Shown here: one piece after another, positions 10,289-31,866 of the stretch
How the letters are laid out: each line of letters begins with the position of its first letter
Numbering within the stretch: position 1 is the stretch's first letter
Assembly: GCA_964619725.1 (NCBI GenBank)
Contig: CAZUFC010000008.1
Coordinates: forward strand, 32,001 to 96,000
Direction of reading: 5' to 3'
Length of the DNA stretch: 64,000 nucleotides
From: an uncultured bacterium
GTDB lineage: Bacteria; CSSED10-310; CAZUFC01
Notes under the pieces: generated by a model
The model's input: the letters and a program-made list of their open reading frames with translations, nothing else
Databases searched by the model: none
Told to the model about the DNA's origin: nothing
Made by a program: the position numbers and the translations under genes

Positions 10289-10773
10289 ATCATGGACGAT
10301 TATGGTGGGGTTGCATTGGGTATGGGTTTTATTACAAAAGGGACCAAGGGACCAAGGGACGTAAGGGACCCAAGGGACCTAAAGGACGTAAGGGACTAAT
10401 GGAATATTGAATCATTTTTAGAAGTAAAGACCTGCATCTGAAAATTAACCGTCTTAAAAAAGAAACGGAATTTCGGGACTGATCAAACCGGACTTGCACT
10501 TCTTGCAAAACTTTTGACGGTTTGTTCCAGTAATCGGGGTCGGTATCGCAATCGCTGATGGTATATTCTGTCGAATTAACCTACAAAGATGCATTTTTGA
10601 TCAATGCCCGCATTTCGTTTAATCCTTTTGAAGGGCGCTTAATCGTCCGGGTTATTGTTTTACTGCGCTCCTTCAGAGCTCGGAGTTTTTATGATCCGGA
10701 CCCAGGGTTGCGCTCCGCTCCGCTTCGCTTAACCCTGGGCTTTCGTACTTCGCTCCTTCGGAGCTTCAGAAAT
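10289..10773 (+). repeat. Modular dispersed repeat, full copy 1 (about 480 bp)
   Basis: Near-identical to 17398-17880. Contains the GGGAC tandem (10340-10396), a core, ATCG hexamers and a triple-palindrome module. Confidence 0.95.
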
Positions 10774-10818
10774 ATCGGCTAACATAATATTATCGGAGGA
10801 GGAAAAGTTGATTCGCTA

Positions 10819-11175
10819 TTATTGCTTTCCGGCAAAGCGGACCTGATTTTCGGTAACTACAGCGAATGTTCCCCTCAATCTATCCGAATATTTTTTCAGA
10901 AGAATGGAAAGAGCTCTGATTTTCGAGGGCGGTCTTTCATCTTCCAGGCGGAGCAGGATAACGCCTTTGTGAGGACGGCCATCTCTATAAACCTTATCCC
11001 CGAAGTCTTTATCATTAGTGATCAGAATCCAGTTTTCTTCATACGCCTTTCGGATAATAGCTTCATCGTTTATTCCGCGGGCTTCATCGAATACGGAAAA
11101 GACCTCATAAGATTGTTCTTTAAGCCATTCAGCTACAGCAGGACCCGTGCATTCATCGACAATGAATCTCATCAC
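10819..11175 (-). CDS. DUF5615 PIN-like toxin (VapC45-like)
   Basis: RFIVDEC, DEAII and ILITNDKDFG motifs; overlaps the upstream DUF433 gene. Confidence 0.88.
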   Translation of the reverse strand: MMRFIVDECTGPAVAEWLKEQSYEVFSVFDEARGINDEAIIRKAYEENWILITNDKDFGDKVYRDGRPHKGVILLRLEDERPPSKIRALSILLKKYSDRLRGTFAVVTENQVRFAGKQ

Positions 11176-11420
11176 GCTGATTCAACAGCCAAAGGCATAA
11201 AATCGGCATTCCTGATGGAATTTGCGGCAAAGAGCAAACAAGCCTGGATGTCTTCCGATTTTAATGAGTTATATTCTTCCAGTATTTCACTCTCTGTCGC
11301 CCCGTGGGCCATTAAGTTGAGAATGAAATCGACTGTCAAACGCGTCCCGCGTATTACAGGCTTTCCGGCCATAAGTTTCGGATTCAGCGTGATGCGTTGA
11401 AGCAATTGATCATCTTTCAT
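11172..11420 (-). CDS. DUF433 antitoxin
   Basis: RITLNPKLMAGKPVIRGTRLTV...EDIQACLLFA. Confidence 0.92.
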   Translation of the reverse strand: MKDDQLLQRITLNPKLMAGKPVIRGTRLTVDFILNLMAHGATESEILEEYNSLKSEDIQACLLFAANSIRNADFMPLAVESA

Positions 11421-12443: not shown

Positions 12444-12782
12444 GAGGTTTAACCGGCCAACAAAATTCCACAGAACTCGGACAATATGAAAAAGCCGCAT
12501 AAAAAAGTAAAGCCGGCTGCAAGGGTTTACGGTAAAAACATAATGAACCTCGGCAGGGCTTTGAAAGTCATGGTTTGCATTAGAGTTCAGTTTTGCTTAA
12601 GCAGGCTTCCAGCCTGCCTTCGCATAGTATAGTAACGCATGGGGTCAGAGCCTGCCGGGATGTCTTGGAGACAGAAGATTCATCATCTTCGAAAAGATAC
12701 TGTATTACACGAACGATAGTCCCCAAAGGCTTCATTAACAATGAAGCCGAAATAACTAATATGAAAAAGAGGCTTTACGGAA

Positions 12783-12902
12783 TGATCAAAATAGCTCTTT
12801 TGAGGTTACAGTTCGATAGAATATCCCATCATTTTGTTTCGATTGCGATTGCGACCCCGACCCCGATACCGATTGCGATTGCGACCCCGACCCCGATTAC
12901 TG
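12783..12902 (-). repeat. Partial inverted repeat copy with expanded hexamers (cgattg/cgaccc)
   Basis: tgatcaaaa..cttttgaggtta...atatcccatcat, then two tandem copies of cgattgcgattgcgaccccgaccccgat. Confidence 0.8.
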
Positions 12903-13003
12903 ATGAGGGATATTTTTGCAATAAGACATTTTTTCCTGCAAAAAAAAATAAACGATGCTAAAATACGACAACGAAAAACCAGCAGTCGTCAGGAGATGAA
13001 AAG

Positions 13004-16000
13004 ATGGATTGCAAACAAACATTTCCGGGCAATAATCCGATGGAACCAATAAAAGCATACCGAATCCGCATCCCCGCCGAACGAGGCAAACTGGTTGAAT
13101 GTTCATTATACGGCGGTCCGGCTGAACACTGGCGATATATGAAAAGCGCCGGGGCATTCGATTCCGGGTCGTATGAATCCGCTTTGTCTGAAGCTTTAGA
13201 CGGCGTGAAGGATGGTGAGAACAGACTGCTTTTGAGTATCGGTCATCCGGACGCAGAGACCCGGGTCCTTTACAGCCGGGAATTGATAGCCGATTTGTGG
13301 AGGGCTGACCGGGGATTGGGTCCTTATCCTTTGCTTGAGTTGTTGGGCGATTATGAACGTGACGGCGTTTATTATTATAAATACCGGGAGCATCTGGCTC
13401 ATCAGGTCCGCGTCTGGCTGCTGGGATTGTATCTTCTGCACCGGGTGGACGTTATTCGCTGGGCTCTTCTGAAAGAGATAAAAGAGGATTTGAACAGGGG
13501 TGAAGCCCTGACCAAACTACAGTTAAATTCGGAAATGCTGCGGCGATGGAAGATTGCAGCTTTATGGCATGATATCGGGTATGTATTTGAAGTGCAGAAT
13601 TCCGGAGAAGCTGCAGAATTGATTAAAAAGAGTCTCAATGCGCTTAATAATACTTATTCTGCACCCATATCAGAGCTGACGGCCGGAAATTCATGCGGAA
13701 TTTCGCTGGAACTGGAAAGGGAGATTCAAAACCAGGCTGAATATGGATTCCCATCCTGGAAATATTTGAGCAACTTCGATGCGCTGGTTTCGGGTCGTCA
13801 TCGTAAACTTTGGTCCAAATTTAAACGGGAAGGTTCCGGGGCATGCCTGGTCGGAGATGCCGATCCGTCAGGCGGATTAAAGGTTTATTTTGAGATGTGT
13901 CGAAATAAGTCCTTCAGTAAAACGGCCGGAATGCGACCCGGGTTCATCGATCACGGAATAGCCGGCGCTTTGACGCTTCTGCGTATCCATGAATTCATGC
14001 AGCATTATGTTAAGGCTCTTCATGAATTCCTGATGGAGGAACCGGAGCTGAGCGACGAAAATCAAAAGAAGGAAGCAGAAGGGATACTGCAGGCGACAAA
14101 CAGCGCCGTCAAAACAGTGAGGGCTGCCGCTGGAGCGATAGCGCTGCACAATATCCATCCGGGTTTGCCTGAACCGAATACTGCTGCGACCGTGGGGCTG
14201 ACCCTGAATAAATATAAAATCCGCCTGACGGAAAAAAACGATCGTCCCGGCACGGCTCTGGCTTACCTGCTGGGCCTCTCGGACGGACTGCAGGAATGGG
14301 ACCGGCCGCATTTCAGACTGGTGCGGGATAAACGTGACCTGACGCTGATCGACCAGCATATTGAAGTCACCGCGGATGACCGTGCGGTTTACCTTCAGTA
14401 CTTCACGGGTGACGATTCGTTCGACGATTATAAAAAAGCGCGGGAAAACCTGGGACAATACCTGGACCGCATCAGAGGCGATAACGCCCTGCTTCGAGAG
14501 GGAAGAATTGAACGTCTGGCGAACGACCTGCCGGAAGAGGCGCAGCCTGCCGCGGTTGCGCGTCTGGACGATTACGACCTCGAACCATACCTGAAAATCA
14601 TCCTGCGCGAATGCGGAACCATAACCCTCCGGGGAATCATGGCCGCGGGAAAATCGCGTGAGGCGCTGGAAATACCTATCCAGGATATTTATGCTCCTTT
14701 GCGGATAGAAGGCGGCGGCACGGATGAACAGATGTGGCGGCTCATAGCGGGTGTGAAAGATGACGTGAGAGAACACAAGGGCCGGACTGAATTGATGCGG
14801 ACGGCGGAACCAATTGAAGATGAAGGCGGAGACGATGATGATAATGATACGAAACGCCAGGGATTGTTGCTCATCGGCGATCCGGATTCCGGCAAGAGCA
14901 CCTTTTTACGCCTGACGGCCGCAGTGATCGCCCGTGCCTTAATGAAAAAAACAGGCGCAGAGGAACACCCCGCAGTAAAAATCTTAAGCGGCGATAACGA
15001 CAAGCTCCCGCTGCCGCTTTACCTTCGCCTTTCCGAATTCGTTACCTTCATGCGGGATAATCAGGGAATCGCCGTTCCCGGAAGCCCCGGATGGTTGGAG
15101 GAATATTTACGTCAATGGCATGAGCAATTCGGTTCGGGAATAGCCTGGGAAGCTTTCAGGAAAAAAATGGAAGAGGGCGGCGTTCTCCTTCTGCTGGACG
15201 GACTGGATGAGATACCCGGCTCTGTAGAAAGACAAAAGGCGGCAGCAGCGCTGAAATCGGCCCTGTCGGAAAATAAATATGGAAAATGCCGCGTATGCAT
15301 CGCCAGCCGTCCGATGAATGAATATGATCTCGATCTGCCGCTCGCATCAAGGAAACTTGACGGGTTGAGCGACCGCGCCATAGAGGAATTTTTGAAATGC
15401 TGGGGTTCCAAAGTTACGCTGGATGAAGCCGGACGTTTCACGACCCCCGAAGAATACACGGAGGACCTCATGGGAGCGGCTAAAAAAGCCGACGTCGCCA
15501 TCCGGCGAATGCTGCGGAATCCGCTGATGCTGACCTGCCTGGCCGTCATACACTGGAATGAACGGCGTCTGCCGCAGCAACGGGCTGAGCTGTTCGATGC
15601 CGTCATCGCCTGGTTGTTGCGTGCCCGCAGACCCATAGAGGCCGGAATGCCGCAGTTGAGCGAACATGAAGCGCGACGAGCGTATCAACTGCTGGCGATA
15701 GCCATGCAGATGCATCCCGGCGGCAGAATACGTGAAATAGACCTGGTTGAAGCTGCTGAGAAAATCGCTGAATGTTTCAAAGGTGATAACGATGAGATTA
15801 AGCGTTTCAAAGCATGCCGTTTTCTTGAAGCAGAGGTCATCAATACAGGCATAGTCACCATGAGAGGCGATAAGCGGATATCGTTCTGGCACCTGTCGTT
15901 CCAGGAATTTCTGGCTGCGGATTATCTGTGCGAAGCTCCTGATAAAATGTGGAAAGAAATATTAAACCAAAAACGTCTATTCGAAAGGGAACAGCGCGAA

Positions 16001-17068
16001 GTCGTTCTACTCCTGGGCGGTCTGATGAAAGGGGGACCCAGAACAAACGAATTGCTGAGACATATCCTCCAGACCCCAAAAAGTGGAAAACTCGCTGATA
16101 AAGCCCGGGAATACGGATTGGCCGGAGCGGTGATCGAGGACGTCAAACCCTACGGTTTCAAACCCGATGCGAAACTCGACATTGAAGGATTGAAACAGGA
16201 TGTTATGCAAATTTTTACCGTCGAAGCCGCCGGCATCCCATTAAAAACAAGGGTTGAAGCTGCTGAAGCCCTCGGTCAGACCGGCGATCCGAGACTCAAG
16301 GAAGATAACTGGGTTGAGATCGAAGAAGGAGGGTTCTGGATGGCGAAATACCCGGTCACGGTGCAGGAATATGAAGCATTCGTGGAAGACGGCGGTTACG
16401 ATCCGGACGGATTCGGGAAAAAATGGCTGCCGGAATGGAAAAAGGCCTTTGATCAATTTCTGGCGTATGAAAAACTGAGAGAAAGATATTCATGGATAAA
16501 GGATGACGATTTTCAAAGACAAAAGCCCCATGATTGGGAAAAACAACTGCTTTATTACAACCGCCCCGTTGTTGATATTACCTGGTTTGAAGCCATGGCT
16601 TATTGTCGGTGGTTTACGGAAAAACAGAAGGACGGATGGAAATACACTCTTCCTGACGAAAAACAATGGGAAAAAGCGGCGATGGGAAAGAAAGGCCGGG
16701 GCCGTTATCCCTGGGGGGACGATCCTCCGGGTGAGGGCGATCAGGCCAGGGCGAACTATGACGGCGCCGGTATAGGCCATCCGTCGCCTGTCGGTCTGTT
16801 TCCGACCGGAACCTCCAAATGGGGCGAAAAAGGAGAATTATTCGATATGTCGGGAAACGTCTGGGAATGGTGTGTCGACACATTGTCAGAAAGTGGCTAC
16901 AAGTCTGTCGGCGGTTCTTACCGGCCGTTGCGGGGCGGCTCGTATTGGAACGACGCCGACAACGTTGAGGTGCGTAACCGTAACAGGAACGTCGCCGTAA
17001 ATCGTAACGACAACAACGGTTTTCGTCTTTGCTGCGTATCCGTCCCCGCCCAACACGCAAAACGATGA
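13004..17068 (+). CDS. HD-domain / NACHT NTPase / FGE-sulfatase (CLec-fold) multidomain protein; putative DGR target
   Basis: HD-like: YREHLAHQ, LWHDIGY, DHGIAG, ALHN, DGLQEWDR. NACHT: GDPDSGKST, LLLLDGLDE, NPLMLT, FWHLSFQEFLAA. FGE: MAKYPVTVQEY, PVVDITWFEAMAYCRW, LPDEKQWEKAA, YPWG, DMSGNVWEW, RGGS..GFR. Confidence 0.9.
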   Translation: MDCKQTFPGNNPMEPIKAYRIRIPAERGKLVECSLYGGPAEHWRYMKSAGAFDSGSYESALSEALDGVKDGENRLLLSIGHPDAETRVLYSRELIADLWRADRGLGPYPLLELLGDYERDGVYYYKYREHLAHQVRVWLLGLYLLHRVDVIRWALLKEIKEDLNRGEALTKLQLNSEMLRRWKIAALWHDIGYVFEVQNSGEAAELIKKSLNALNNTYSAPISELTAGNSCGISLELEREIQNQAEYGFPSWKYLSNFDALVSGRHRKLWSKFKREGSGACLVGDADPSGGLKVYFEMCRNKSFSKTAGMRPGFIDHGIAGALTLLRIHEFMQHYVKALHEFLMEEPELSDENQKKEAEGILQATNSAVKTVRAAAGAIALHNIHPGLPEPNTAATVGLTLNKYKIRLTEKNDRPGTALAYLLGLSDGLQEWDRPHFRLVRDKRDLTLIDQHIEVTADDRAVYLQYFTGDDSFDDYKKARENLGQYLDRIRGDNALLREGRIERLANDLPEEAQPAAVARLDDYDLEPYLKIILRECGTITLRGIMAAGKSREALEIPIQDIYAPLRIEGGGTDEQMWRLIAGVKDDVREHKGRTELMRTAEPIEDEGGDDDDNDTKRQGLLLIGDPDSGKSTFLRLTAAVIARALMKKTGAEEHPAVKILSGDNDKLPLPLYLRLSEFVTFMRDNQGIAVPGSPGWLEEYLRQWHEQFGSGIAWEAFRKKMEEGGVLLLLDGLDEIPGSVERQKAAAALKSALSENKYGKCRVCIASRPMNEYDLDLPLASRKLDGLSDRAIEEFLKCWGSKVTLDEAGRFTTPEEYTEDLMGAAKKADVAIRRMLRNPLMLTCLAVIHWNERRLPQQRAELFDAVIAWLLRARRPIEAGMPQLSEHEARRAYQLLAIAMQMHPGGRIREIDLVEAAEKIAECFKGDNDEIKRFKACRFLEAEVINTGIVTMRGDKRISFWHLSFQEFLAADYLCEAPDKMWKEILNQKRLFEREQREVVLLLGGLMKGGPRTNELLRHILQTPKSGKLADKAREYGLAGAVIEDVKPYGFKPDAKLDIEGLKQDVMQIFTVEAAGIPLKTRVEAAEALGQTGDPRLKEDNWVEIEEGGFWMAKYPVTVQEYEAFVEDGGYDPDGFGKKWLPEWKKAFDQFLAYEKLRERYSWIKDDDFQRQKPHDWEKQLLYYNRPVVDITWFEAMAYCRWFTEKQKDGWKYTLPDEKQWEKAAMGKKGRGRYPWGDDPPGEGDQARANYDGAGIGHPSPVGLFPTGTSKWGEKGELFDMSGNVWEWCVDTLSESGYKSVGGSYRPLRGGSYWNDADNVEVRNRNRNVAVNRNDNNGFRLCCVSVPAQHAKR
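16909..17058 (+). other. DGR template-repeat-like / variable-region tract inside the 3' end of the target gene
   Basis: Encodes WNDADNVEVRNRNRNVAVNRNDNNGFR, with 9 Asn (8 AAC and 1 AAT) between the conserved FGE residues, and lies directly upstream of the RT gene. Confidence 0.75.
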
Positions 17069-17199
17069 TTGAAACGTTAATCGATTTTCCGTGCAGGCTG
17101 CGTCCTGGCCGGGTTATTGTCCGGTTAAAGCATTACAGCCTGTCCGTTCCGGTAGGAAATATCCGAACGTCCGGACAGGCTTTTCCATTATTGTAACAA
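17069..17199 (+). ncRNA. Putative DGR TR-to-RT spacer RNA (structured)
   Basis: Perfect 10-bp stem AGCCTGTCCG (17137-17146) / CGGACAGGCT (17172-17181) enclosing ccggtagg..ccgaacg. Its position matches the DGR spacer. Confidence 0.55.
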
Positions 17200-17400
17200 G
17201 TGAAGACGTTCAATAACATTTTTGAAAAAATCGTCGCTTTTGAAAATATATGGAACGCCTGGAGGAAGGCCAGGAGGAGAAAAAGACGCACGCATCCTGC
17301 TGCATTATTCGAATTTAATGCTGAACATAACATTGAAAGAATCCGTCGCCGGTTGAAAAATGGAACTTACAGGCCGGATCGCTACAGGATGATTAAGATC
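17200..17400 (+). pseudogene. 5' fragment of a DGR-type reverse transcriptase, truncated by the dispersed repeat
   Basis: MKTFNNIFEKIVAFENIWNAWRKARRRKR...FEFNAEHNIERIRRRLKNGTYRPDRYRMIKI is a DGR-RT-like N-terminus. Repeat sequence starts at 17398 and no YxDD core is present. Confidence 0.85.
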
Positions 17401-17880
17401 ATGGACGATTATGGTGGGATTGCATTGGGTATGGGTTTTATTACAAAAGGGACCAAGGGACCAAGGGACGTAAGGGACCCAAGGGACCTAAAGGACGTAA
17501 GGGACTAATGGAATATTGAATCATTTTTAGAAGTAAAGACCTGCATCTGAAAATTAACCGTCTTAAAAAAGAAACGGAATTTCGGGACTGATCAAACCGG
17601 ACTTGCACCTTGCAAAACTTTTGACGGTTTGTTCCAGTAATCGGTATCGCAATCGCAATCGAAATGATGGGGTATTCTGTCGAATTAACCTCAAAAGATG
17701 CATTTTTGATCAATGCCCGCATTTCGTTTAACCGTTTTGAAGGGCGCTTCATCGTTCGGTTCTTTGTTTTACGGCGCTCCTTCAGAGCTTTAATTTTTAT
17801 GATCCTGACCCAGGGTTGCGCTCCGCTTCGCTTCGCTTAACCCTGGGCTTTCGTACTTCGATCCTTCGGAGCTTAAGAAA
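17398..17880 (+). repeat. Modular dispersed repeat, full copy 2
   Basis: Direct repeat of 10289-10773; the first roughly 200 bp are almost identical. Confidence 0.95.
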
Positions 17881-18184
17881 AGTAAGTAAAGAACATTTTC
17901 GGATGAAGAATTTTCACACAACCGATTAATTTTGCCTGATGAATAATATTGCAACCGTAGAACATTTCCGAAAAACCAGGCTTTTATGTTATAGCGATAG
18001 GCGAAGCGGGCCGGCTGTTTCCTGGATGTTGGTTTACCAGCAAAAGCTTGCATGCTGGGGATTTCATGAAGGGGCTAACCCAGTCATTGAATAAGTTTAC
18101 ATTTTTTGCAAAGTTGGGGCGCTTGCGTTATTGTAAAAAGATGAGATGGTCCTTATGATTGATCCTATTTTCCGAATCCAACCG

Positions 18185-18322
18185 AATGGTTTTTAGTACG
18201 GATGAAAGGAAGCCATCGACAGTCAAGCATCCCGATAAAAAAGGTCTGATTAGCGGGGAAATCAGGTGAAGACCTGGCGCCGGGAACACTGAACAGTATT
18301 TTGAAACAAGCGTGATTGAAAA
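18185..18322 (+). pseudogene. hicA: HicA toxin remnant
   Basis: Frameshifted pieces WFLVRMKGSHRQ / KHPDKKGL / GKSGEDLAPGTLNSILKQA*. Confidence 0.75.
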
Positions 18323-18464
18323 GAAGAAATATTTGATTGTGGTTGAAAAAACAGAAAAAGGTTATTCAGCGTTCTGTACGGATTTGGATGGATGCGTTGC
18401 TGCCGGACAAACGCAAGAAGAAGTCGAAAGTTTAATGGGCATTGATCAAAAATGCGTCTTTTGA
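18312..18464 (+). pseudogene. hicB: HicB antitoxin, 3'-truncated by a repeat module
   Basis: KKYLIVVEKTEKGYSAFCTDLDGCVAAGQTQEEVESLM, then repeat sequence from 18437. Confidence 0.78.
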
Positions 18465-18494
18465 GGTTACAATTCTTCAGGATACCCCAACATT
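18437..18494 (-). repeat. Partial inverted repeat copy
   Basis: gggcattgatcaaaaatgc is the exact reverse complement of 10591-10609. Confidence 0.8.
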
Positions 18495-18707
18495 TATAAT
18501 GGACCTAAGAATAGTGATGTTTGCGTTGTGACTATAAGAAAAACAACCCCCCGATTCGCTAATGCTGAGCCTTCGACTTCGTCTTGTCTCAGCATAAGCG
18601 TATCGGTCCCCCCTTTGGTAAGCTCACTTTTATACACGCTTGACACAATAGAGGAATGATTTTCACTTTACACTTCAAATACAATTAGTATCAGATTTTA
18701 GTTCTGC

Positions 18708-19004
18708 TTACGCGGCATCACCTCTTTTAAATTCATTTAGTTCCTTCTGAATACGCTCGGCGATATATATTTTCAGCAAAGACTGATAAGGAACATCCCG
18801 TTTATTCGCCAGAAGCTTCAAATGCTCAATAACGCTTTCAGGCAAACGGATGGATATCGTTTTGGTCGACGGTTTCAATTTCGCCAGGGTCAAAGAGTCA
18901 GCTTTTTTCCAATCAATATATTCAGTTGAATCATGGGTTGCCCAGAATTCATTTTCTTCATTTTCATCTTTAAATTCAGGGATTCTCTTTTTGTTCATTT
19001 TCAA
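18708..19004 (-). CDS. brnA: BrnA/CopG-like antitoxin
   Basis: IPEFKDENEENEFWATHDSTEY...ISIRLP...DVPYQSLLK. Confidence 0.88.
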   Translation of the reverse strand: MKMNKKRIPEFKDENEENEFWATHDSTEYIDWKKADSLTLAKLKPSTKTISIRLPESVIEHLKLLANKRDVPYQSLLKIYIAERIQKELNEFKRGDAA

Positions 19005-19299
19005 AAACCTTTCGTTCTTTATTGCTCATGTCTCTGGCAGAGATGATCCGAATAAAATCATTTCTGACAGTGAATACAATAAATAATCTTCTCCCCAAGT
19101 CCGTCTCTCCTAATAAGTAATATCTCTTTTCCGTGACGGAATGGGAAATATCATGGGCCACTATCATGGGCTGATTGAAAAAAACCTGCTCCGATTCAGT
19201 TCGGGACACCTGATGCTTTTCCCAATTTTTTGTCGCATTACCCGCATCCCATTCAAATCCTTTGCAATTTTTTAATAAATCCATCAGACCACTCGACAA
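18976..19299 (-). CDS. brnT: BrnT family toxin
   Basis: GFEWDAGNATKNWEKHQVS, HSVTEKRY and VFTVR..IRIISAR motifs. Confidence 0.92.
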   Translation of the reverse strand: MSSGLMDLLKNCKGFEWDAGNATKNWEKHQVSRTESEQVFFNQPMIVAHDISHSVTEKRYYLLGETDLGRRLFIVFTVRNDFIRIISARDMSNKERKVFENEQKENP

Positions 19300-20190: not shown

Positions 20191-20294
20191 GGGGACTGAT
20201 CAAAGGGGGTTACACTTCTTTCAAAATTTTCGACGGTTTGTTTCAGTAATCGGGTTCGGGGTCGGTATCGGGATCGAAATGGAAGCGAAATAAT
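20191..20294 (+). repeat. Partial repeat copy (core end plus ATCGGG hexamers)
   Basis: gggactgatcaaa...cacttctt.caaaa.ttt.gacggtttgtt.cagtaatcgg matches 10475-10540. Confidence 0.8.
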
Positions 20295-23200
20295 TGTTCC
20301 AACGGCAATTCATACGAGGAGATACAATATAATTTCACGGGCAATATGGTGAACGACAATCAAAGCGGAGGCGTTTACGTTCGCACGGGCGACAGTTCGG
20401 AGGAAATATCCGTACTGATGCAAAATGAGATTGTAGAGGGCAATGTTGCGGACGGCATCAACGTTCGATTCAGCTCTTATTCATCAATTACGTCTATGGT
20501 TTTACAGAACGTTGCGTCTTATGACAATGCGGGAGCGGGTGCGGAAATTCATTATGACAACAGTCAGACGGCGGCGGCCCTGGAAATAGAATCATGTGAT
20601 TTTTACGGAAACACGGGAAGAGGATTATATGTTTACGGAGATGGAATAATTTCTTCTTCGGTTTTTTCGAGCTGCACATTTTATGCGAACGGAAATGACG
20701 GATGTCGAATTTTCACGCCGGCAGAAATATTATTTCTGGACAACTCAGCGCATGACAATTTGAATCACGGCATCAGCATAAAACCGACTGCCGGGGCTTC
20801 TGTAGAAATACGGGGCAATGAGTCGTACGGCAACGCGGAGGACGGCATTTACTGTGAGAACTCTGACGCTCTGTTTATTTACAACAGCGTGCATGAAAAC
20901 GGGAGCAGCGGGATCAATTTTAATGACAGGACAGGGCATTTCATTCAGAACGATATTTTCACGAACGGCTTCTGCGGAGTGAGGTTCAACGCCGGTGACG
21001 GCGTGCAGGTCGTTAATGGTAATAATATATATGATAATTTGGAATATGAGATTTACAACAATACGCTTTATGCTGTCGATGCCAGGAACAATTATTGGGG
21101 AACAGCGACGACGGAAGCGATGAACACTCAGGGGTATACTGCCGACCTGGAAACTGTATATGACATCCATGACGATTTGCTTCTCGGCATGGTAGACTAC
21201 CGGGGTTGGAATGGGGATTTACTGGATACTTCGACTGATCCGGTTTCTTATATTGTAGTTCCCCTGGAAGGCATGACGTTGCCCCGGGGCAATTTTACGA
21301 TTGAGGGAGTAGCGTGCGCTTCGGCCGGCATAGCCCTGGTGGAAGCTTATAAAGACGGTGGCTGGGAGGAAGCCTCAGGGACGGTCGACTGGACCATAGA
21401 TTGGTTTGCGGGCGTATCAGGTCCTGCTACGGTTAACTCCAGGGCCGAGGATAGTGATTCCAACGTGGAGACGCCTGGTCCGGGAATCAACGTGGACGTG
21501 GATGTTTCCATGAATCACGCCAGGGGAGAACTTTACGCGGATGAAACCTGGAGCGGCGACGTATATGTTACCGGAGACGTCATAGTGCCTGAAGGCATCA
21601 CGTTGACCGTGCTTCCGGGATCAACGGTGAATTTCCTCCGTAACCGGGACGATACGCTCAGCGGTTTGGATACGTCGCGTTCTGAGTTGATCGTAAGAGG
21701 CGTTTTAATAGCTGACGGAGACCCGGAAAGCATTATCAGGTTTACGAGTGAGGAGGTTTACAAGCGCGACTGGTATGGAATAAGGTTCGACGATGCGAAT
21801 GATGAGCTTTGCGTGCTTGATCATTGCGAGATCAAGTATGCGCATGCAGGGATCAGCCTGGAAAGCGCTTCCGTGCCGATTACTAACTGTCTTGTCGCTG
21901 AATGCTGGTATCGCGGCATTACCGGCGAATCATCGGGAGGGGATATAATCCTCCGGAACAACGAGATTCTCAACAACGGTACAAGCAGCGAGGGCGACGG
22001 GGTAAACATCAAATGTAAATCATCCATTTCGGTATTGCTGGAGAATACAGAAATTCACGGCGCTTTCGCGACCGGAATACATTTTTACAATGAAGCGGAA
22101 ACAACGAATATTGATTATACGGTTATGGACAATAATATTCATGACAACGGCGAGCACGGCCTGAGCATCATCGCGGGTTCACGTTCGACAAACATTGATA
22201 TTCAAGTTCAAAATGAGGTTCATTATAATAATGTCGAGGACGGCTTCAACATAAGGATTAATTCTCAATCGTCCGGTACGGCGGTAAGTTTTGAGAACGT
22301 CGATGTTTACGACAACGACGGCGACGGAATAGAGGTGTTTTTCAACGAATTGGAAACATATTCGGGGATTGAGATGGCCGATTGCGAAGTTTATCGAAAC
22401 GAAGGGAGCGGCATTTGGATACGAGTGTCGGGAGAGCTTGATGAAGCTTTGGTTCATGAATGTTTATCGTATGAAAACGGCGGAGCGGGTTGCAGCATAG
22501 GAAAGACGGATATTTTAACGGTGAGGAACAACGAGATCAGGGATAACGGCGGCGACGGGTTATGGGTGAGAATAACGGATACGGGAAGCGTTATAGACGA
22601 TAATTACATCCGTGAGAATGCGGGAAGGGGAATACATTGTGAAGATGGAAATGCGATGTTCAAGTATAACACCGTCAGGAAAAACGGTTCTTATGGGATA
22701 GAGTTCGAGCGGGGATTCGGCACATTTTTGCAGAACAACATATACATGAATCAGAGCTGCGGATTACTGTTAAGCGACTGCGCATCCATTAACGAGATAC
22801 ATTACAACAATATATTCAGAAACGCCACGTATGAAATTTACAATAATTCGCCGCGTGCTGCGGACGCCAGGCTAAACTGGTGGGGCGACGTAGCGACCGC
22901 CCAGATGGACTCGCAGGGATATTCCGTGGATATCGAAGTGATTTACGATATTCATGATGATTTCACTCTGGGCATGGTGGATTACCGTGGTTGGTTCGTC
23001 CGTCCGTCAGACATTTCAAAGGACCCGGGTTCTCATATAACCGATCCCATGGACGGCATGACGATACCTGCCGGTCCGATAAATATTGTGGGAACGGCGG
23101 TTTCGTCAGCGGGTCTGGACCATGTGGATGTCAGCACGGACGGCGGGAACGTCTGGAACCCGGGAACAGGAACGGCACATTGGCATTATCCGTGGAATGC

Positions 23201-25685
23201 TGATACTGAAGGCACGTATAATATTCGTTCGTGTGCGTATGACGCTGAGTTGAATGCGGAATTTCCAATCGATGAGGGGATATTCGTCGATGTTGAGCCA
23301 GGTTTGCTTCATACGTGGGGAACCATTTACGAGGATGAGACATGGAGTGAGAGCATTGTGATAATGGGGGACGTCGTGGTTCCGGCCGGGGTAACGCTGA
23401 CTGTAATGCCCGGAACGACGGTGGTTTTTGCAGCAGAGCGGGACGACACGATGAGCGGCTTTGATGATTCCCGTTGCGAACTTATTGTGCAGGGGGCTTT
23501 AAATGCTGACGGCGATTCTGAAAATGAGATACTCTTCACCGTCGATTCGCTGGTTCCCGTCAGCAAGGACTGGTATGGAATACGTTTCGTTAATCCTGAC
23601 GCTTCATTCTGCGTCATGGACCATTGCAGCATCCAATGGGCCCATGCGGGCATATCCCTGGAATCGGCTTCTATCGACATAACGAACTGCAGTATTTCCG
23701 AATCTTTTTATCGGGGAATAACCGGAGCGACTTATGGAACGGGAATGTCGCTTCAGGACTGTCGAATATTCGACAACGGTCATGACGACGAAGGCGACGG
23801 CGTTAATATAAGATGCGGTTCATTCAACTCTCTGACTGTAAGCGAGAATGAATTTTTCGACAATTTCAACTGCGGAATTCACTGCTGGAGCGGTTCCGAA
23901 ACGTCGAACATTGATTACCTGTTCGTTAATAATCTAGCTTACGGCAACGGAGCAAGCGGCTTCAGCGTAAAAGCGGGCGTCGAATCAATGCATATTTCCT
24001 CGACATTTCAGAATGAGACTTGCTATGGCAATGCGCAGGACGGCATTCATGTCGAGTATTCGGGAGGAGCTGCGGATACGGAAGTCATCCTGGATAACGT
24101 CGTTACTTACGATAATGAAGGCGACGGCGTAGAGATACGTTCCAATGATCTTGACGGTCCGTCAGTTGTCGAATGCGTTGATTGCGATGCGCATGGCAAC
24201 GGAGGCATGGGCATCCGGTCGAATGTAACCGGAAGCATCTCCAGCCTGGGTATTGCCGATTGTGTGATTCATGAAAACGAAGGAGGGGGTTGTTCCCCGG
24301 GAATGTCGATTCAGGCTTCGATCAGCGGCATGAACATTTATGACAATAACGGCGAAGGACTGTGGATAAGGGGCGGCAATGCGGAGTTAACCGAAAACGA
24401 TGTATCGAACAACAGCGGAACGGGCATCCATTGTCAAGGCGGCGCTGTTCAGGGTTTCTGCAATGTGATGACGTTCAACGGCGGAGACGGCTTTCAATTG
24501 CAGAACGGAAGCGCTGTCTTCCATTACAACGATATAAACTGGAATGAAGGATACGGCGTCAGGTTTACTGATTCGGGAGCCGGTTCTAATTTCGATCACA
24601 ATAACATCTACACTAACGGCGATTATGAATTTTATAATAACTCGAACGAAGATGTTTCCGCCCAGTACTGCTGGTGGGGAAACACGGTCACCGGTGAAAT
24701 GAATGAACTGGGGTATCCCGCGGATATAACCCGGATATACGACGTACACGAAAATTCTTCCCTGGGAGAAGTCATTTACGATAACTGGCTCGACGGACAC
24801 GTGCCCACTGTAACGCCGACGCCGGGACCGACCTTTACGCCCGGTCCCCCGACTTATACTCCGACTGCAGGACCATCGCCCACGCCGCCGGTGTTTTCTC
24901 CAACTCCGCCCTTTACTCCCACTGTAACGCCGCTTTGCCTTAACGACGGAGACGTCGACCAGAACGGCAAACTGACTCCCCAGGATGCTCAGTTTGCTTT
25001 CTTTATTTATCTGGGTGTTATCGATCCCACTTACATAGAATTATGCTCCGCTGATTGTCTCGGTGAGGGCGAAGTCACTCCTGACGATGCTCAATGCATT
25101 TTACAGCATTATCTGGATATGGGCTGCGATTGCGCAGACCCTATAGCGATGCCGCCATATCCGAACCGAAAACAGAACACCGGCAAGCAAAAATGTCCGC
25201 TTGAAAGGCATATCCCCCGACATGCTCAGAATAATGCTCGTTCACACTTGTCGAAATCTGACCGGGCGCCGGCCGCTGTGGACCGGGAAAAAACCGGCGT
25301 CATCATCATCGAGCGGAAACGGGACGCACAGTCGGGATATTTAACCCTACGCATCAGTATGGAAAATTATCGTAATGAAGCGGATGCTTTTGGGTTTCGA
25401 TTGAATTTCCCGCAGAACCTGCTTACGCCGGTCAACATGCAGTTCGGCGAAAAAATTGCCGATTGGAGGGCTGTTGCCGCGAATCATGAACCGGGCAGTA
25501 TAATTTTCGGCGCTTTTGATACGGAAAAGGCTTTGCCTGCGGATTCTCAGAGCATGATAGCGGATGTCGAATTCATGATAAAGGGAATCGGCGAGACGGC
25601 CGGAATAGAAATAAGAGTCGTTGATCTAGTGGATGATATAGAAGATTACGAAATTTACGTTAACGATATGATTTTCAATGAATAA
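20295..25685 (+). CDS. Giant parallel beta-helix / Ig-like repeat surface protein with dockerin-like and cohesin-like C-terminal modules; 5'-truncated (first ATG at 20346)
   Basis: NxIxxNxxxGI repeats, ETWSG..GDV.VP units, PTPT linker, CLNDGDVDQNG..TPQDA/DCLGEG..TPDDA, C-terminal DAFGF..DLVDD. Homology to the paralog begins at 20295 and there is no signal peptide. Confidence 0.82.
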   Translation, partial: CSNGNSYEEIQYNFTGNMVNDNQSGGVYVRTGDSSEEISVLMQNEIVEGNVADGINVRFSSYSSITSMVLQNVASYDNAGAGAEIHYDNSQTAAALEIESCDFYGNTGRGLYVYGDGIISSSVFSSCTFYANGNDGCRIFTPAEILFLDNSAHDNLNHGISIKPTAGASVEIRGNESYGNAEDGIYCENSDALFIYNSVHENGSSGINFNDRTGHFIQNDIFTNGFCGVRFNAGDGVQVVNGNNIYDNLEYEIYNNTLYAVDARNNYWGTATTEAMNTQGYTADLETVYDIHDDLLLGMVDYRGWNGDLLDTSTDPVSYIVVPLEGMTLPRGNFTIEGVACASAGIALVEAYKDGGWEEASGTVDWTIDWFAGVSGPATVNSRAEDSDSNVETPGPGINVDVDVSMNHARGELYADETWSGDVYVTGDVIVPEGITLTVLPGSTVNFLRNRDDTLSGLDTSRSELIVRGVLIADGDPESIIRFTSEEVYKRDWYGIRFDDANDELCVLDHCEIKYAHAGISLESASVPITNCLVAECWYRGITGESSGGDIILRNNEILNNGTSSEGDGVNIKCKSSISVLLENTEIHGAFATGIHFYNEAETTNIDYTVMDNNIHDNGEHGLSIIAGSRSTNIDIQVQNEVHYNNVEDGFNIRINSQSSGTAVSFENVDVYDNDGDGIEVFFNELETYSGIEMADCEVYRNEGSGIWIRVSGELDEALVHECLSYENGGAGCSIGKTDILTVRNNEIRDNGGDGLWVRITDTGSVIDDNYIRENAGRGIHCEDGNAMFKYNTVRKNGSYGIEFERGFGTFLQNNIYMNQSCGLLLSDCASINEIHYNNIFRNATYEIYNNSPRAADARLNWWGDVATAQMDSQGYSVDIEVIYDIHDDFTLGMVDYRGWFVRPSDISKDPGSHITDPMDGMTIPAGPINIVGTAVSSAGLDHVDVSTDGGNVWNPGTGTAHWHYPWNADTEGTYNIRSCAYDAELNAEFPIDEGIFVDVEPGLLHTWGTIYEDETWSESIVIMGDVVVPAGVTLTVMPGTTVVFAAERDDTMSGFDDSRCELIVQGALNADGDSENEILFTVDSLVPVSKDWYGIRFVNPDASFCVMDHCSIQWAHAGISLESASIDITNCSISESFYRGITGATYGTGMSLQDCRIFDNGHDDEGDGVNIRCGSFNSLTVSENEFFDNFNCGIHCWSGSETSNIDYLFVNNLAYGNGASGFSVKAGVESMHISSTFQNETCYGNAQDGIHVEYSGGAADTEVILDNVVTYDNEGDGVEIRSNDLDGPSVVECVDCDAHGNGGMGIRSNVTGSISSLGIADCVIHENEGGGCSPGMSIQASISGMNIYDNNGEGLWIRGGNAELTENDVSNNSGTGIHCQGGAVQGFCNVMTFNGGDGFQLQNGSAVFHYNDINWNEGYGVRFTDSGAGSNFDHNNIYTNGDYEFYNNSNEDVSAQYCWWGNTVTGEMNELGYPADITRIYDVHENSSLGEVIYDNWLDGHVPTVTPTPGPTFTPGPPTYTPTAGPSPTPPVFSPTPPFTPTVTPLCLNDGDVDQNGKLTPQDAQFAFFIYLGVIDPTYIELCSADCLGEGEVTPDDAQCILQHYLDMGCDCADPIAMPPYPNRKQNTGKQKCPLERHIPRHAQNNARSHLSKSDRAPAAVDREKTGVIIIERKRDAQSGYLTLRISMENYRNEADAFGFRLNFPQNLLTPVNMQFGEKIADWRAVAANHEPGSIIFGAFDTEKALPADSQSMIADVEFMIKGIGETAGIEIRVVDLVDDIEDYEIYVNDMIFNE

Positions 25686-25701
25686 CCAGGAGGGAGTCAA
25701 T

Positions 25702-28700
25702 ATGAAAAACCTGTCTTTTAAAAGGCAATTGTTTGTCGTTGCGGCGCTTGTTATGTTTCTGCCGTGCGTATCCGCGTTTGCTCAAACCACAACGCCTTCT
25801 CCGGGGGCTACGGCTACGGTATCGCCTACGCCGGCGCCGACCCTGGCTTCGGGCATTCTTGCTGTGGACGAAACCTGGGACGGCAGGGTATTGGTTACAG
25901 GGGATGTAACGGTGCCGGATGGATTGAGTCTAACGATTCAAGCAGGTACGCTGGTTGAATTCACGGCGGTTTCTGACGATATGAGCAGCGGAGCTGATAA
26001 TTCCAGGTGTGAGTTGATTATTGAGGGAATCCTGGAAGCGGACGGGGAAGCGGCGAATGAGATCATCTTCACCAGCGACGCGGATACTCCTGAACCCAGG
26101 GATTATTACGGCATCCGGTTCCTGGACCCGGCAGATGAGCTCTGCGTGCTCGATTATTGTCAAATAGCCTGGGCTTATATCGGCGTTGAACTCAATACGG
26201 CTTCTCCTGCGGTTACCAATAATGTTATTTCAGACTGCTATTTCCAGGGAATCAGCGGCAGCTCCTCGGAAGTGGACCTGATTATCGAAGGTAACGAAAT
26301 TTTTAATGTCGGAGTCAACAACGACGGTCACGGCATCTACATCGATTGCTTTACCGATATGGATATCTATTTAAACAATAATCATTCTCATGATAATTAC
26401 GGACGGGGCATTTACTGTTATAACGGCAACGGGTTATCAAACATTAATTATTATTTCACGGGAAACCTTACTGAGAATAATGCGAGAGGGGGCATTTACG
26501 TTTACGCCGGCAATTCCTCCAATAACGTTAACTTTCATTTCCAGGATGAAACGGCAAGCAGCAATGGAGGCGACGGCATACAAGTGAGATCCTATGCTTA
26601 CGGCTCTAATATGGATGCCTTTTTTCAAAGCGTCGACTCATATGATAATGACGGCAACGGCGTTCATCTGTATTTCGACCGTATCAGCGATCCGACGAAT
26701 GTTGAATTAAGGGATTGTAATTTATATGAAAACGCTCAAAAAGGCATATACGCCTGGGGAAGCGGCGATCCTTCGTCAGCCCTGTTTTCGATGTGCGCTG
26801 TTTATGGAAACGAAGATGAAGGCTGTTATTTCAGGGCATTCAAGAATTTTTTAGCGGAAGGCAATGCCGTTTATGATAATCTGGACAACGGCTTACATGT
26901 AAGGCCGTCGTCGAACGCCGCAGTCGAATTCCAGCATAACGACATTTATAATAACGCATCTTATGGCGTGTATTGCAATGGGTCTTCTCCTCTATTTATT
27001 TACAACGAAATACATGAAAATTTGGGAGGAGGCGTATGGTATCAGGACGAGATAGCGACATTCGTTCAGAACGACATCTACATGAACGGGACGTACGGCG
27101 TATATTTCAACAATGTAAACGACACACAGGCAATCAACGGGAACAACATTTACGACAATACGGACGCTGAGATTTACAATAACACCGGACACGCTGTTGA
27201 TGCGCGGTGCAATTACTGGGGCGTTTCGACGACTAATGAGATGAATACGATGGGATATTCCGCGAATCTGTCGGCTCTTCACGATATCCACGATGATATT
27301 TCGCTGGGAATGATCGATTACCGCGGATGGAAATCGACTGCCCTGGACACTTCCGTGGACCCTGTATCTTACATAATTGATCCGCTGGACGGCATTACGG
27401 TTTCACGAGGCGTGCTTGACATAGAGGGAGTGGCCTGTGCGACGTCGGGTATAGATATCGTTGAGGTGACGAGAGATGGAGGCATGTTCTGGCTGGAAGC
27501 TGACGGCAAGGAGGATTGGTCATTTCCGTGGTATGCCAGCGCATCGGGAATATATAATCTTAATTCCCGCGCTTACGACGATGATTCGGTGATGGAAACT
27601 CCCGGAGCCGGAATTTTTGTGGAAGTCGATTCAGATAAGATTCATACGCTGGGCGATCTGTTTCTGGACGAAACCTGGAGCGGCGACGTATTCGTTACCG
27701 GCGACGTCACTGTTCCCAACGGAGTAACTTTGACGATTCTTCCGGGAACGACGGTGACTTTTGCCGCAAACCGGGACGATATGATCGGAGGAATGGATAC
27801 GTCGCGCTGCGAGCTGATCGTTAAAGGCATTCTTAATGCGACAGGAACATCGGGAGATGAGATCGTCTTCACAAGCGACTATGAATCTCTGAAGGATTGG
27901 CACGGCATCCGTTTCGTGAATCCTGTGGATGCTTTCTGCATCCTGGACCATTGCGATATTCAATGGGCGCATGCAGGCATTATCCTTGAAGATGCTTCGC
28001 CGACCATTATGAACAGTTCTGTTTCTCATTGCCTGTATCGGGGTATCACGGGCGAGACTTCGGAAGAAGACATGCTGTTGCAGGGCAACGACATATTTTT
28101 GAACGGCTCCGACGGCGACGGTTACGGCGTTTACCTGAGTTACAGATGTTCGCTGACGTTCGACGACAATCATATTTACGAGAATTTCAACAACGGCGTT
28201 TACTGCGTAGGATTCCAGGCGGTCAACATAATCGAACATAACTTCATGAACAATGTGGTCAACAATAATGGAGACACCGGCGTTTACATGAGAGTCCCTT
28301 CAAGTTCGCAGAACGTCGAGGTGAATTTTCAGAACGACATCTTTTTCAGCAATAACGACCATGGGGTTTTTGTCGATTTTGACCCTTATGGAACCAATTT
28401 GGGAGCGACATTTAACGGCGTAACCTCTTATGATAATGATGATGAGGGAATCAAGACAGCATTTGACCGGGATAATGCACCGAGATACGTTGAAATCTAC
28501 TCATGCGAAGTATATGAAAACATTGACTTTGGTATAGAAATTTGGGGCGGAGTGGATGATGTGACGGTACAGGATACCTCTGTTTATGAAAATGCGGGAA
28601 TAGGTTGTTACATAAGGTCTGTCGAACAGCTTGATTTTTCGAACAACTCTATCAGCGAGAACTTGTCTGACGGGCTTTGGTTGAGAGTATCCGATCCCGT

Positions 28701-31700
28701 GAGTCAGGTTTATTGGAATGATATTTACAGCAACGGTGAAGACGGCATTCATTGCGAGTACGGCAATATTGAGATGAAGTACAACGAGATACGAAAGAAC
28801 GGCATATACGGTATTGAGTTTGAATACGGGACAGGAACTTTCACACATAATAACATTTACCTGAACGCCGGATATGGGGTCATGCTTAAGGAGAGCGGGG
28901 ACATTTGCAAATTTCATTTCAACAACCTGTTCAGAAACGAGACATATGAGATGTACAACGATTCGGCAAGGCCAGTGGATGCCCGGCTTAACTGGTGGGG
29001 GGACGTAACGACGGCCCAGATGGATGCACAGGGTTATTCGGTGGATATTGCGAAAATCTATGACATTCATGATGATTTTACTCTGGGTCAGGTTGATTAT
29101 CGAGGCTGGATAGGGATGGCGGTTAATGTCGACAAGGACCCGGCATCTCATATCATAGAGCCGATGGACGGCATGGTATTGCCGAAGGGTCCGGTGGACA
29201 TATACGGGATAGCGGTTTCAACAGTAGGCATCGATCATGTGGACGTAAGTACTGACGGCGGGAACGACTGGGATGAGGTTCTCGGCGAGGAACACTGGAT
29301 TTTTCCGTGGTTTGCGGGCGTCGACGGAACATATAATATACGTTCAAGAGCCGTTGATACGGATTTAAACCTGGAATCGCCCGTCGGGCCCGGCATCACC
29401 GTAGACGTGGATACGGATGCGCCTCATACGTGGGGAACGCTTTATGAGGATGAAACCTGGAGCGGCAGCATGGTGATAACGGGCGACATAACCATCCCTG
29501 CAGGCAATGCGCTGACGATCCTTCCCGGAACTGACGTTATATTTGCTGCGGAACGGGACGACACCATGAGCGGAGTGGATGAGTCGAGGTGCGAATTGAT
29601 TGTGGAGGGATCGTTGATTGCTGATGGAGATGCGGCTGACGAAATTACATTTACGGTCAATTCGGTCGTTCCCGAAAGAATGGACTGGTACGGCATCAGA
29701 TTCGTGGAATCAAACGATGCCGAATGCGTGCTGGATCATTGCAATATTCAATGGGCCTACACGGGCGTCATGCTGGATAATTCTTCCCCTGAGATCAGCC
29801 ATTGCTCGATTTCCAACTGCTATTATCAGGGGATATCAGGCAGTACCTCGGACAACGACATCACCATATCCGACAGCGAAATATTCGAAAACGGCATGGA
29901 CAACGACGGTTACGGCATTATACTCGATTGCGGCGAAGAAATCAGGATAACGTTGAACGGCAATCACGTGCATGACAATTTCAGCTCTGGAATTCACTTC
30001 AGCAAAAGCAACGGACTGTCTGACATCCATTACATACTCATGAACAATACGGTCCACGATAACGACGGCCACGGCGTAAGGATATGGACGGGGAACAACA
30101 CCAATAATTCAGATGCATTCTTCCAGAACGAATATTATTACAACAATTACGGCGACGGACTTAACTTCAGATTCTCCGACTATTCGACTGATACGCAAGT
30201 AATTCTGGATAACGTAACCTGCAGGGCGAACACCGGCGACGGAATGTACCTGGAATTCAAACGCAACAACGAACCCGTCAATCTGGAATTATACGGGTGT
30301 GAGTCTTATGAAAATGATGAGAACGGCATTAAAATGTTTGCGAACAGTTGTTTTGTTTCCACGCTAACCTGTTCGGATTGCTATGTGCATGACAATGGAG
30401 AAGCGGGATGCCGGTTTGAAAAAACGGAGGAAGCGATCGTGAGTCACAATACGATCGGCGACAATGACGGCGACGGACTATGGATGAAACTAGGCGGAGA
30501 GAATGTATCCCAAATTTTTGACAACCAGATATTCGATAACGGGGGAATGGGACTTCACGTAGAAAACGGCGATGCGGTATTTTCAAACAACGCTGCAGAC
30601 CACAACATAAGTCACGGGATAGAATTCAGCGCCGGCCTCGGGGTTTTTCATTACAATGATATCAACTGGAACGGCGGATACGGCATCAGGCTAAACAATA
30701 CAAGCGACGTGACGGATTTCGATTACAACAATCTTTATCTCAACAACACCTATGAAATGTACAACGATTCTTCTTACGATGTATCGGCCATGTGCTGCTG
30801 GTGGGGCGATGCAGCGACCCAGGAGATGAATGATTACGGATTTCCTCACGATATATCGAGGATATACGACAACTGGGATTCGCCTTCGCGGGGACTGGTG
30901 AATTACAGCGGCTGGCAGAGCGGCCCGCTTCCGACGTTGACTCCCACAGTAGCGCCTACGGCGACGCCGGCGCCTCCGACATTGACTCCCACCATATCGC
31001 CCACCATGCCTTCCTGGACTATAACGCCGACCCTGGTACCGCCTACGGCCACGCCCGTATGCTGGAACGACGGCGATGTGGACGACAGCGGAGTATTAAC
31101 GCCCCTGGATGCCTTGATGTCATTCCGTATTTACCTGGGGGTGATACCCGATCCCACATTCGATGAATTCTGTTCCGCTGACTGTCTGGGAGAAGGCAAT
31201 GTTACGCCGGCCGATGCTCAATGCATCTTCGAGCATTACCTGGGAATGGAATGCGATTGCGCTGATCCTGTCGGAAAGGGATTCGGCGATGACTATGCTG
31301 CTCTGAATCAACGCAGAGGTTTACTGAGCGGACATGATGAAGCGTATGAGATTCAGGAACGGAGCGACGGCGAAAGGTTGGATGCGGTCTCCGAGGCTGG
31401 GATACAGAAGGTTCCGGACGGGTTTCTTTACGCTGAACTGGATTATAATTATACGACGGATTTACTCCTGGTCAGCATCAGGATGAGGAACGACGCAGAG
31501 CTCGTGCAAGCCTTCGGATTCCAGGTGTCATTCGATGAAAGCGTTTTAAATTACAAGGAATACCTGTTCGGCGAAATGATTGAGGATTGGGCATTCATGG
31601 GATCGAATTACAGCGAGGGCAACCTGACGGTCGGCGCCTTTGATGCTTTTTCAGGCATAAAGCCGGGATCGGAGGGCGTATTAGCGTTGTTTGTCTTTGA

Positions 31701-31830: not shown

Positions 31831-31866
31831 AAACGGCAATTTTCACCAATAACAGGGAGCAGCATA

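Follow-up and report, generated by a model that had tools for sequence, protein, structure and literature searches.

In the genome of an uncultured bacterium (assembly GCA_964619725.1), can a sensor gene that is followed by only the first codons of a reverse transcriptase (RT) still be diversified, and if not, how did it come to end as it does? This question is raised by 13004-17400 of a 64-kb window, the whole stretch of DNA analysed here (contig C8, positions 32001-96000), where a long gene with the C-terminus of an FGE/C-type lectin (CLec) domain runs into the start of an RT of the kind found in diversity-generating retroelements (DGRs). An earlier reading made from the letters without database searches (the sequence-only reading) had seen here a collapsed DGR whose mutated variable repeat (VR) might still be served by an RT elsewhere in the genome. 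Our analysis points, with a probability of about 0.7, to a DGR remnant formed by recombination of the VR with the template repeat (TR), which would have deleted the intervening genes, and with the RT truncated at the edge of a repeat. The genome is a 9.17-Mb metagenome-type assembly of 344 contigs (91% complete, 6.5% contamination), and C-numbers below denote its contigs.

The sensor gene ends in a template-state segment

Two apparently intact DGRs, on C26 (L009 3102-11785) and C9 (L012 2823-10801), provide the yardstick for this locus. Each comprises two convergent NACHT-FGE target genes, an HTH_17 gene, avd, a TR, a spacer with a conserved hairpin and an RT of 333-335 aa; read in one direction, the order in both is target with VR, HTH_17 gene, avd, TR, spacer and RT. 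On C26 the TR adjoins a bAvd gene, an RVT_1 RT and two targets of the DUF4062-NACHT-FGE type, and 18/19 and 19/20 of the mismatches with the two VRs fall on TR adenines. C26 is thus a bona fide DGR.

The sequence-only reading had taken the RGGSW...GFR segment at the end of the sensor gene for a mutated VR. Its codons tell a different story. The segment, at 16909-17058 (+) and forming the 3' end of the open reading frame (ORF), is rich in Asn/AAC: the 26-codon stretch 16940-17017 contains eight AAC codons, one AAT and 25 adenines. The matching 26 codons of the C26 TR contain eight AAC, no AAT and 27 adenines, with Asn at the same positions, whereas VR1 and VR2 of C26 contain no and one AAC, respectively, no AAT, and 10 and nine adenines. 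The Asn/AAC codon counts match those of TRs and not those of VRs, so that 16909-17058 cannot be called a diversified VR; its state is that of a TR.

Across the whole genome, five RGG...GFR segments contain at least six AAC/AAT codons. In the four stand-alone TRs among them, 12-84 open codons precede the Asn-rich stretch; only at 16909-17058 is it preceded by 1323. FGE-type (CLec-like) segments that end long ORFs mostly have zero to two AAC/AAT codons in this genome. The best BLAST matches of 16850-17200 were the stand-alone TRs on C29 and C26, at 74-76% identity. The mismatches of 16909-17058 fall on all four bases, with adenines accounting for 9/45 against the C26 TR, 11/64 against the C9 TR and 3/39 against the C29 TR. 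Copies of the segment differing only at adenines, which the sequence-only reading had suggested looking for, were absent from the BLAST results for the 9.17-Mb assembly. Of the TR/VR pair with mismatches on TR adenines that a functional DGR possesses, the locus thus offers a single copy, in an assembly that is 91% complete.

In the wider protein family, this same site is variable, as had been expected of a DGR target. The homologs P0002-P0004 are hypervariable at eight of the nine Asn positions of 16940-17017, and P0002 and P0003 share 85.7% identity upstream of the VR, yet only 12 of 26 VR residues match.

A template-type spacer follows the gene

The stop codon of the sensor gene ends at 17068 and the next ORF begins at 17200, leaving a gap of 131 bp that agrees with the roughly 130-bp structured spacer described by the sequence-only reading between the FGE/CLec C-terminus and the RT N-terminus. 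This gap folds better than shuffled sequences (z -2.64; 2/200 shuffles equal). The spacer, 17069-17199 (+), is of the TR type, corresponding to the 'Sp' region of DGR RNA, with a conserved block at 17089-17109 and a hairpin at 17138-17180. The hairpin is common to the TR-to-RT spacers of three other loci in the genome, and compensatory changes were seen at seven of its 13 pairs (four sequences). Over 17089-17196 the DNA aligns with the TR-to-RT spacers of C26, C9, C29 and C15 and not with VR 3' flanks. Both C26 VRs have a different, GC-rich hairpin directly 3', and no such hairpin lies behind 16909-17058. The VR-side 3' recognition elements of a functional DGR, the initiation of mutagenic homing (IMH) site and the GC hairpin/cruciform, are therefore missing from the locus. 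Rfam gave zero families for the spacer at E <= 1, its sole row being a chance lncRNA match at 18048-18282.

A truncated, apparently DGR-type reverse transcriptase

The RT begins at 17200 and consists of its first 66 codons (17200-17397, +), with homology to the N-termini of DGR RTs; the remainder is missing. Compared with the 335-aa DGR RT of C26, the ORF 17200-17508 aligns over residues 1-69 only (33% identity, E 2e-9). The homology stops at 17397, and at 17398 begins a composite repeat of about 500 bp (17398-17895), resembling a miniature inverted-repeat transposable element (MITE), with tandem arrays of a 9-mer and a hexamer and a very high-copy core, which ends the RT frame.

A library search with RT residues 1-66 returned 612 proteins at E <= 0.001, and nearly all of the best 150 of these aligned at their own N-termini. 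Among the 20 listed relatives of at least 280 aa, 14 carry the motif [ILVM]Gxx(x)[TS]SQ, in which we take Gxx(x)[TS]SQ to be a marker of DGR RTs, and none carries QGxxxSP. None of the 20 passes the cut-off of the group II intron model (74-153 bits, cut-off 300). On the same model the avd-linked RTs of this genome score 83-129 bits and its true group II RTs 353-389 bits. Within the genome, the best matches of the stub are the avd-linked RTs on C9, C280 and C26, which are the three full-length avd-linked DGR RTs found elsewhere in the assembly. The group II-like RT on C78 is matched weakly (E 0.005, versus 2e-7 for C9), and the group II RTs on C274, C247 and C66 are not matched at E <= 0.01. Over the 66 residues compared, the stub thus appears not to group with group II intron or retron RTs, an outcome that would have spoken against the sequence-only reading, and it is by these comparisons DGR-like and dead, as that reading had held.

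Its suggestion to look for avd and an intact RT had a divided outcome, as both exist in the genome on C9, C280 and C26 and neither in the window. A lenient tblastn search of the whole 64 kb found no further RT, avd or helix-turn-helix (HTH) remnant, and the two Avd proteins of the genome gave only chance-level tblastn matches there (E >= 0.49). A working DGR has a full-length DGR-clade RT and an avd gene adjoining the TR and RT; here there are codons 1-66 of the one and no sign of the other.

Several other RT sequences of the genome deserve mention. The RT/maturase genes on C274, C247 and C66 score above the NCBIfam cut-off for group II introns (353-389 bits), and the RT on C78 is group II-like (267 bits); C274 and C78 had been considered as DGR RTs and were rejected as group II intron-type by these scores. 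Isolated C-terminal RT pieces lie at C27:66974-67420 and C207:104-466, the former flanked by the MITE-like repeat family of the window; either might be the part that the window RT has lost. Two more DGR remnants were seen: C29:440-1200 (L010) retains a stand-alone TR with spacer, and C15:1600-2400 (L011) just a spacer, into which about 190 nt are inserted. In both, related repeat arrays come directly after the TR-side spacer, and there is no RT.

The sensor protein and its predicted domains

The former target gene (13004-17068, +) is an intact ORF of 1354 aa with zero internal stops. Full-length homologs of its product, P0002-P0005, show 41-47% identity over 96-99% of the query. Relatives are otherwise sparse. 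Among 40 other genomes, none closer than the same phylum, two had a match at E <= 1e-20, both partial; a search for related loci with the window protein gave eight pattern matches, none of them a relative; and a metagenome scan with the homolog alignment gave six distant loci at 27-31% identity, the contigs of P0002-P0004 not being among them.

The HD-NACHT-FGE architecture that had been proposed for this protein stood firmly in its last part. Pfam FGE-sulfatase (PF03781) matches residues 1096-1342 with E 1e-36 (16289-17029, +), a domain of FGE-sulfatase/CLec fold that is predicted to be the ligand-binding sensor. A profile made from homologs of this domain also matches Treponema denticola variable protein 1 (2y3c, E 7.4e-9), which is DGR-diversified. 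With a CLec/FGE fold and a variable stretch at the C-terminus, the protein has the makings of a DGR target.

The middle part held as well, with the qualification that the Pfam NACHT model scores 29.6 bits with residues 521-1065 alone and 26.5 bits with the whole protein, the cut-off being 26.7. The NACHT-type P-loop NTPase core lies at 14864-15409 (+; residues about 621-802) and has the Walker A residues G-K-S-T and the stretch D-G-L-D-E. In the homolog alignment the columns G630, K631, S632 and T633 of Walker A and D732-E736 (D-G-L-D-E) are invariant. Profile match, Walker A and Walker B together point to a STAND/NACHT NTPase.

The N-terminal part is less clear-cut. A putative effector domain at 13301-14503 (+; about residues 100-500) resembles phosphohydrolases of the HD superfamily by fold matches and by an H..HD..D pattern, with a Pfam HD score of 17.3 bits that lies below the cut-off of 22. 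An AlphaFold model of the N-terminal about 500 residues (pLDDT 84.7, pTM 0.89) had zero Foldseek matches in the PDB at E <= 0.001. Named phosphohydrolases and phosphodiesterases predominated among the 50 matches that an exhaustive VIA-align search listed, with Z from 9.4 to 5.8, a range that the tool grades as middling for helical models. They included YhaM (9.4), PPX/GppA (9.0), HD-GYP (8.1), cyclic-nucleotide phosphodiesterases (about 8) and SAMHD1 (6.1); Cas3 was also listed. Across 13 homologous sequences H130, H133 and H189-D190 are invariant, and conservation reaches 90% or more at D316-H317, H382 and D427. On the strength of model and alignment, the N-terminal domain is probably HD-like.

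Related HD-like modules occur in other settings. P0006 (1183 aa) combines one with Ser/Thr kinase Pfam domains and P0009 (1279 aa) with an AAA_22 domain, in each case at 37-42% identity over about one third of the query, which suggests that the module is shuffled among proteins. On C15, downstream of the spacer remnant and on the same strand, a 286-aa HD-like-domain paralog is 46% identical to residues 21-241.

Searched with PADLOC, the sensor protein gave nothing significant (best mad8, E 0.0095), and its NCBIfam match to the antiphage family EruA reached only 18 bits against a cut-off of 1000. With its frame still open, the 1354-aa protein may be a STAND NTPase sensor of fixed specificity with an HD effector.

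Origin of the fused locus

The order of the segments suggests how the locus arose. A TR-like segment, a TR-type spacer and an RT start lie contiguously and appear homologous to the corresponding parts of the intact DGRs, as a DGR remnant should. From C26 and C9 we infer an ancestral layout in which a target with VR would have been followed by an HTH gene, avd, TR, structured spacer and RT. Recombination or slippage between the direct repeats VR and TR would then have removed everything between them, HTH gene and avd included, and such a deletion in a C26/C9 layout would give exactly the layout seen at 13004-17397. Every variable position shows the template state, which would put the crossover within the short invariant segment that precedes the first variable adenine, unless the VR was still undiversified at the time. 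The outcome would be an HD-NACHT-FGE gene that ends in an unmutated TR, providing an Asn-rich 'germline' binding site, followed by the TR-type spacer and the start of the RT. The RT would have been cut after codon 66 at the edge of the MITE-like composite repeat, and either event may have come first. Of the five features that define a working DGR, the locus lacks four, which makes it a remnant and not a functioning system. As there is no avd, separate TR, VR-type 3' flank or RT in cis, it is probably unable to diversify any further.

To what extent the two junctions are real can be judged from Logan k-mer contigs for four runs, all from a single study (microbial mat metagenome), which were compared with 16300-18000. 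Record 1 of run X1 covers 16300-17642, record 10 of X2 covers 16837-17280 and record 18 of X3 covers 17324-17449, all without a single differing letter. Contigs from three samples thus support the two junctions.

This bears on the idea of an assembly artefact, in which the assembler would have jumped from the target gene into an invariant TR, the VR being hypervariable in the population, and/or between repeat copies at 17398. VR/TR pairs and interspersed repeats are places where assemblies classically go wrong. The assembly is of the metagenome type, with 344 contigs and 6.5% contamination, VR and TR have invariant stretches in common, and a second copy matches the repeat at 17398 almost letter for letter over the first ~230 bp. 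Even so, the contigs of X1, X2 and X3 read through both junctions without a differing letter, although a shared node with two equally deep entries, one from the target side and one from the avd side, should break such contigs; nor does the assembly contain an orphan avd or VR contig matching the locus. We regard an artefact as very improbable. Much the same holds for diversification in trans, which the sequence-only reading had left open: the segment would be an ordinary VR that, beside a dead local RT, is still mutated by the RT of another DGR in the genome. The full-length avd-linked RTs on C26, C9 and C280 would be at hand, and the spacer hairpin shared with C26 and C9 makes cross-recognition of the RNA conceivable. 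Against this stand the unmutated TR state of 16909-17058 and the absence of a VR-type GC hairpin 3' of it. Moreover, trans diversification is unlikely because the TRs of the full-length DGR RTs do not match the segment, the mismatches to the C26, C9 and C29 TRs lying on all four bases. The contigs of the four runs list no differing letters at 16300-17440, a weak argument given that such contigs drop rare variants. Taken together, there is only a slim chance that the locus is still diversified in this way.

Two further explanations accept the fusion as real and differ in how it came about. The layout could be native and functional, with the 3' end of the gene doubling as TR and the VR or VRs and RT located in the unassembled 9% or on another replicon. 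The ORF is open, and the TR segment, spacer blocks and hairpin are intact and undecayed, as this would require. The other four TRs of the genome are all stand-alone, however, no VR partner is found in the assembly, a repeat has visibly cut the neighbouring RT short, which does not look like an RT left out by design, and the article texts searched describe no such arrangement; we consider a native layout very improbable. Alternatively, the CLec end of a non-cognate HD-NACHT-FGE gene could have acquired, by recombination, a TR-spacer-RT cassette from a different DGR. The genome offers many paralogous FGE ends and several DGR loci, and duplication and recombination of DGR parts have been reported from a different genome with several DGRs (Doré et al. 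2024, PMC10907252). Such an ectopic capture would be compatible with the present data, as a deletion is, but it needs an inter-locus rearrangement where a simple deletion suffices, and we consider it highly unlikely.

Some observations weigh against a VR-TR deletion or weaken the support for it. The ancestral layout is drawn from paralogs and not from an intact ortholog, and the RTs of these paralogs are only about 33% identical to the stub. Among the homologs whose surroundings could be retrieved, P0005 (L029) is the closest, and the 3.6 kb upstream and 8 kb downstream of it contain no DGR; over the same reach its contig shows no RT, avd or repeat pair. In an assembly that is 91% complete, a partner repeat could sit in the missing part. 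Covariation in the spacer is derived from just four sequences. The contigs backing the junctions all come from one study, in which one sample is maybe the source of the assembly, and they drop rare variants. A more far-reaching proposal would make VR-TR recombination a recurrent natural route that resets DGR targets to a fixed, template 'germline' state and discards the machinery, with this locus as the first documented natural example and its poly-Asn, naive HD-effector sensor still expressed and functional; as a whole we find this doubtful.

Repeats and neighbouring genes

The composite repeat that ends the RT frame has a second copy at 10289-10804, with 92% identity to 17398-17895 and without RT sequence ahead of it; the two are nearly identical over the first ~230 bp. 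Sub-parts of the composite repeat have 80-485 BLAST matches in the genome, and its core of about 32 nt (17686-17717) reaches a depth of about 1580 in run X1, versus 8 in the unique flanks. Members of this nested MITE-like family also lie at 12770-12900, 18420-18500 and 20218-20294. The sensor gene is bracketed by inverted repeat copies (12812-12903 versus 17635-17684), and a 33-nt inverted repeat with 97% complementarity (17686-17718/18437-18469) encloses 718 nt. Between these last inverted repeats begins a short ORF fragment, 18312-18464, that is HicB-like by eye.

Two-gene cassettes resembling toxin-antitoxin pairs are located at 18708-19299 (-) and 10819-11420 (-). A 98-aa cassette product matches the BrnA antitoxin model with E 1.9e-12 and 47.1 bits, under the cut-off of 60, and the other three products had zero NCBIfam matches. 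Further downstream, three giant, internally repetitive ORFs (1779, 2050 and 910 aa) follow one another at 20346-34599 (+); the 1779-aa product likewise had zero NCBIfam matches.

Comparison with known systems

Within the same genome, the locus resembles the C26 and C9 DGRs in its TR type (the Asn pattern), its spacer blocks and hairpin, its N-terminal RT sequence and its NACHT-FGE target. It differs from them in that C26 and C9 keep avd, a full-length RT, a stand-alone TR and two VRs with essentially adenine-only mismatches. Their targets start with DUF4062, whereas the window target starts with an HD-like domain, and their RTs are 32-33% identical to the stub.

If our reading is true, the locus illustrates a specific mode of DGR death, the homologous collapse of VR onto TR, which is built into the element's own repeats. 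Its signature would be an AAC-rich 'variable' region in a long target ORF, followed by a TR-side spacer. Surveys based on TR/VR pairs would overlook or misread such loci, and the signature could be used to count frozen DGR targets. A natural protein in the naive, template-encoded state would also be a reference for what diversification adds to a CLec sensor, and an HD-type effector would be added to the DGR-tied STAND-CLec sensors. The article texts searched, supplements aside, mention neither a natural fusion of VR and TR by which a target ends up template-encoded nor an HD-type effector on DGR-linked STAND-CLec targets. As NLR-like STAND-CLec DGR targets and MITE-driven DGR decay are already published, the novelty of the TR-state fusion and the HD effector is modest. 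The locus is not a new kind of system but a tidy case of DGR collapse.

The closest parallel comes from multicellular bacteria, in which DGRs diversify STAND NTPase-CLec 'antigen sensor' proteins (Doré et al. 2024, PMC10907252). Like the targets described there, the window protein has an N-terminal effector-type domain, a central NACHT/STAND NTPase and a C-terminal CLec/FGE domain with the variable region. The same paper reports, for another multi-DGR bacterium, MITE-like arrays that degrade DGR parts, including replacement of the RT gene, and the present genome likewise has several DGR loci and MITE-like repeats degrading their parts. In contrast to those targets, the variable region of the window gene is the TR itself, with avd and a separate TR gone. 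The N-terminal domain is HD-like here, and 'HD domain' and 'phosphohydrolase' have 0 occurrences each in that paper's main text.

With the antiviral STAND NTPases of the NACHT/Avs type (NLR-like), the protein has in common an N-terminal effector, a central P-loop switch and a C-terminal sensor, a likeness read from sequence alone; unlike theirs, its sensor is a single DGR-type CLec/FGE domain and not a set of TPR, WD or LRR repeats. With the prototype DGR of Bordetella phage BPP-1 (Mtd, avd, TR, brt), the window locus shares a CLec-fold target, a variable-region site at its C-terminus, an AAC-rich TR and a structured RNA between TR and RT. A structured RNA, the RT-10 motif, was noted by Weinberg et al. 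2017 (PMC5737381). Unlike the BPP-1 element, the window locus is non-functional, its spacer has no Rfam match, and its target is a cellular STAND protein in place of a phage tail fibre.

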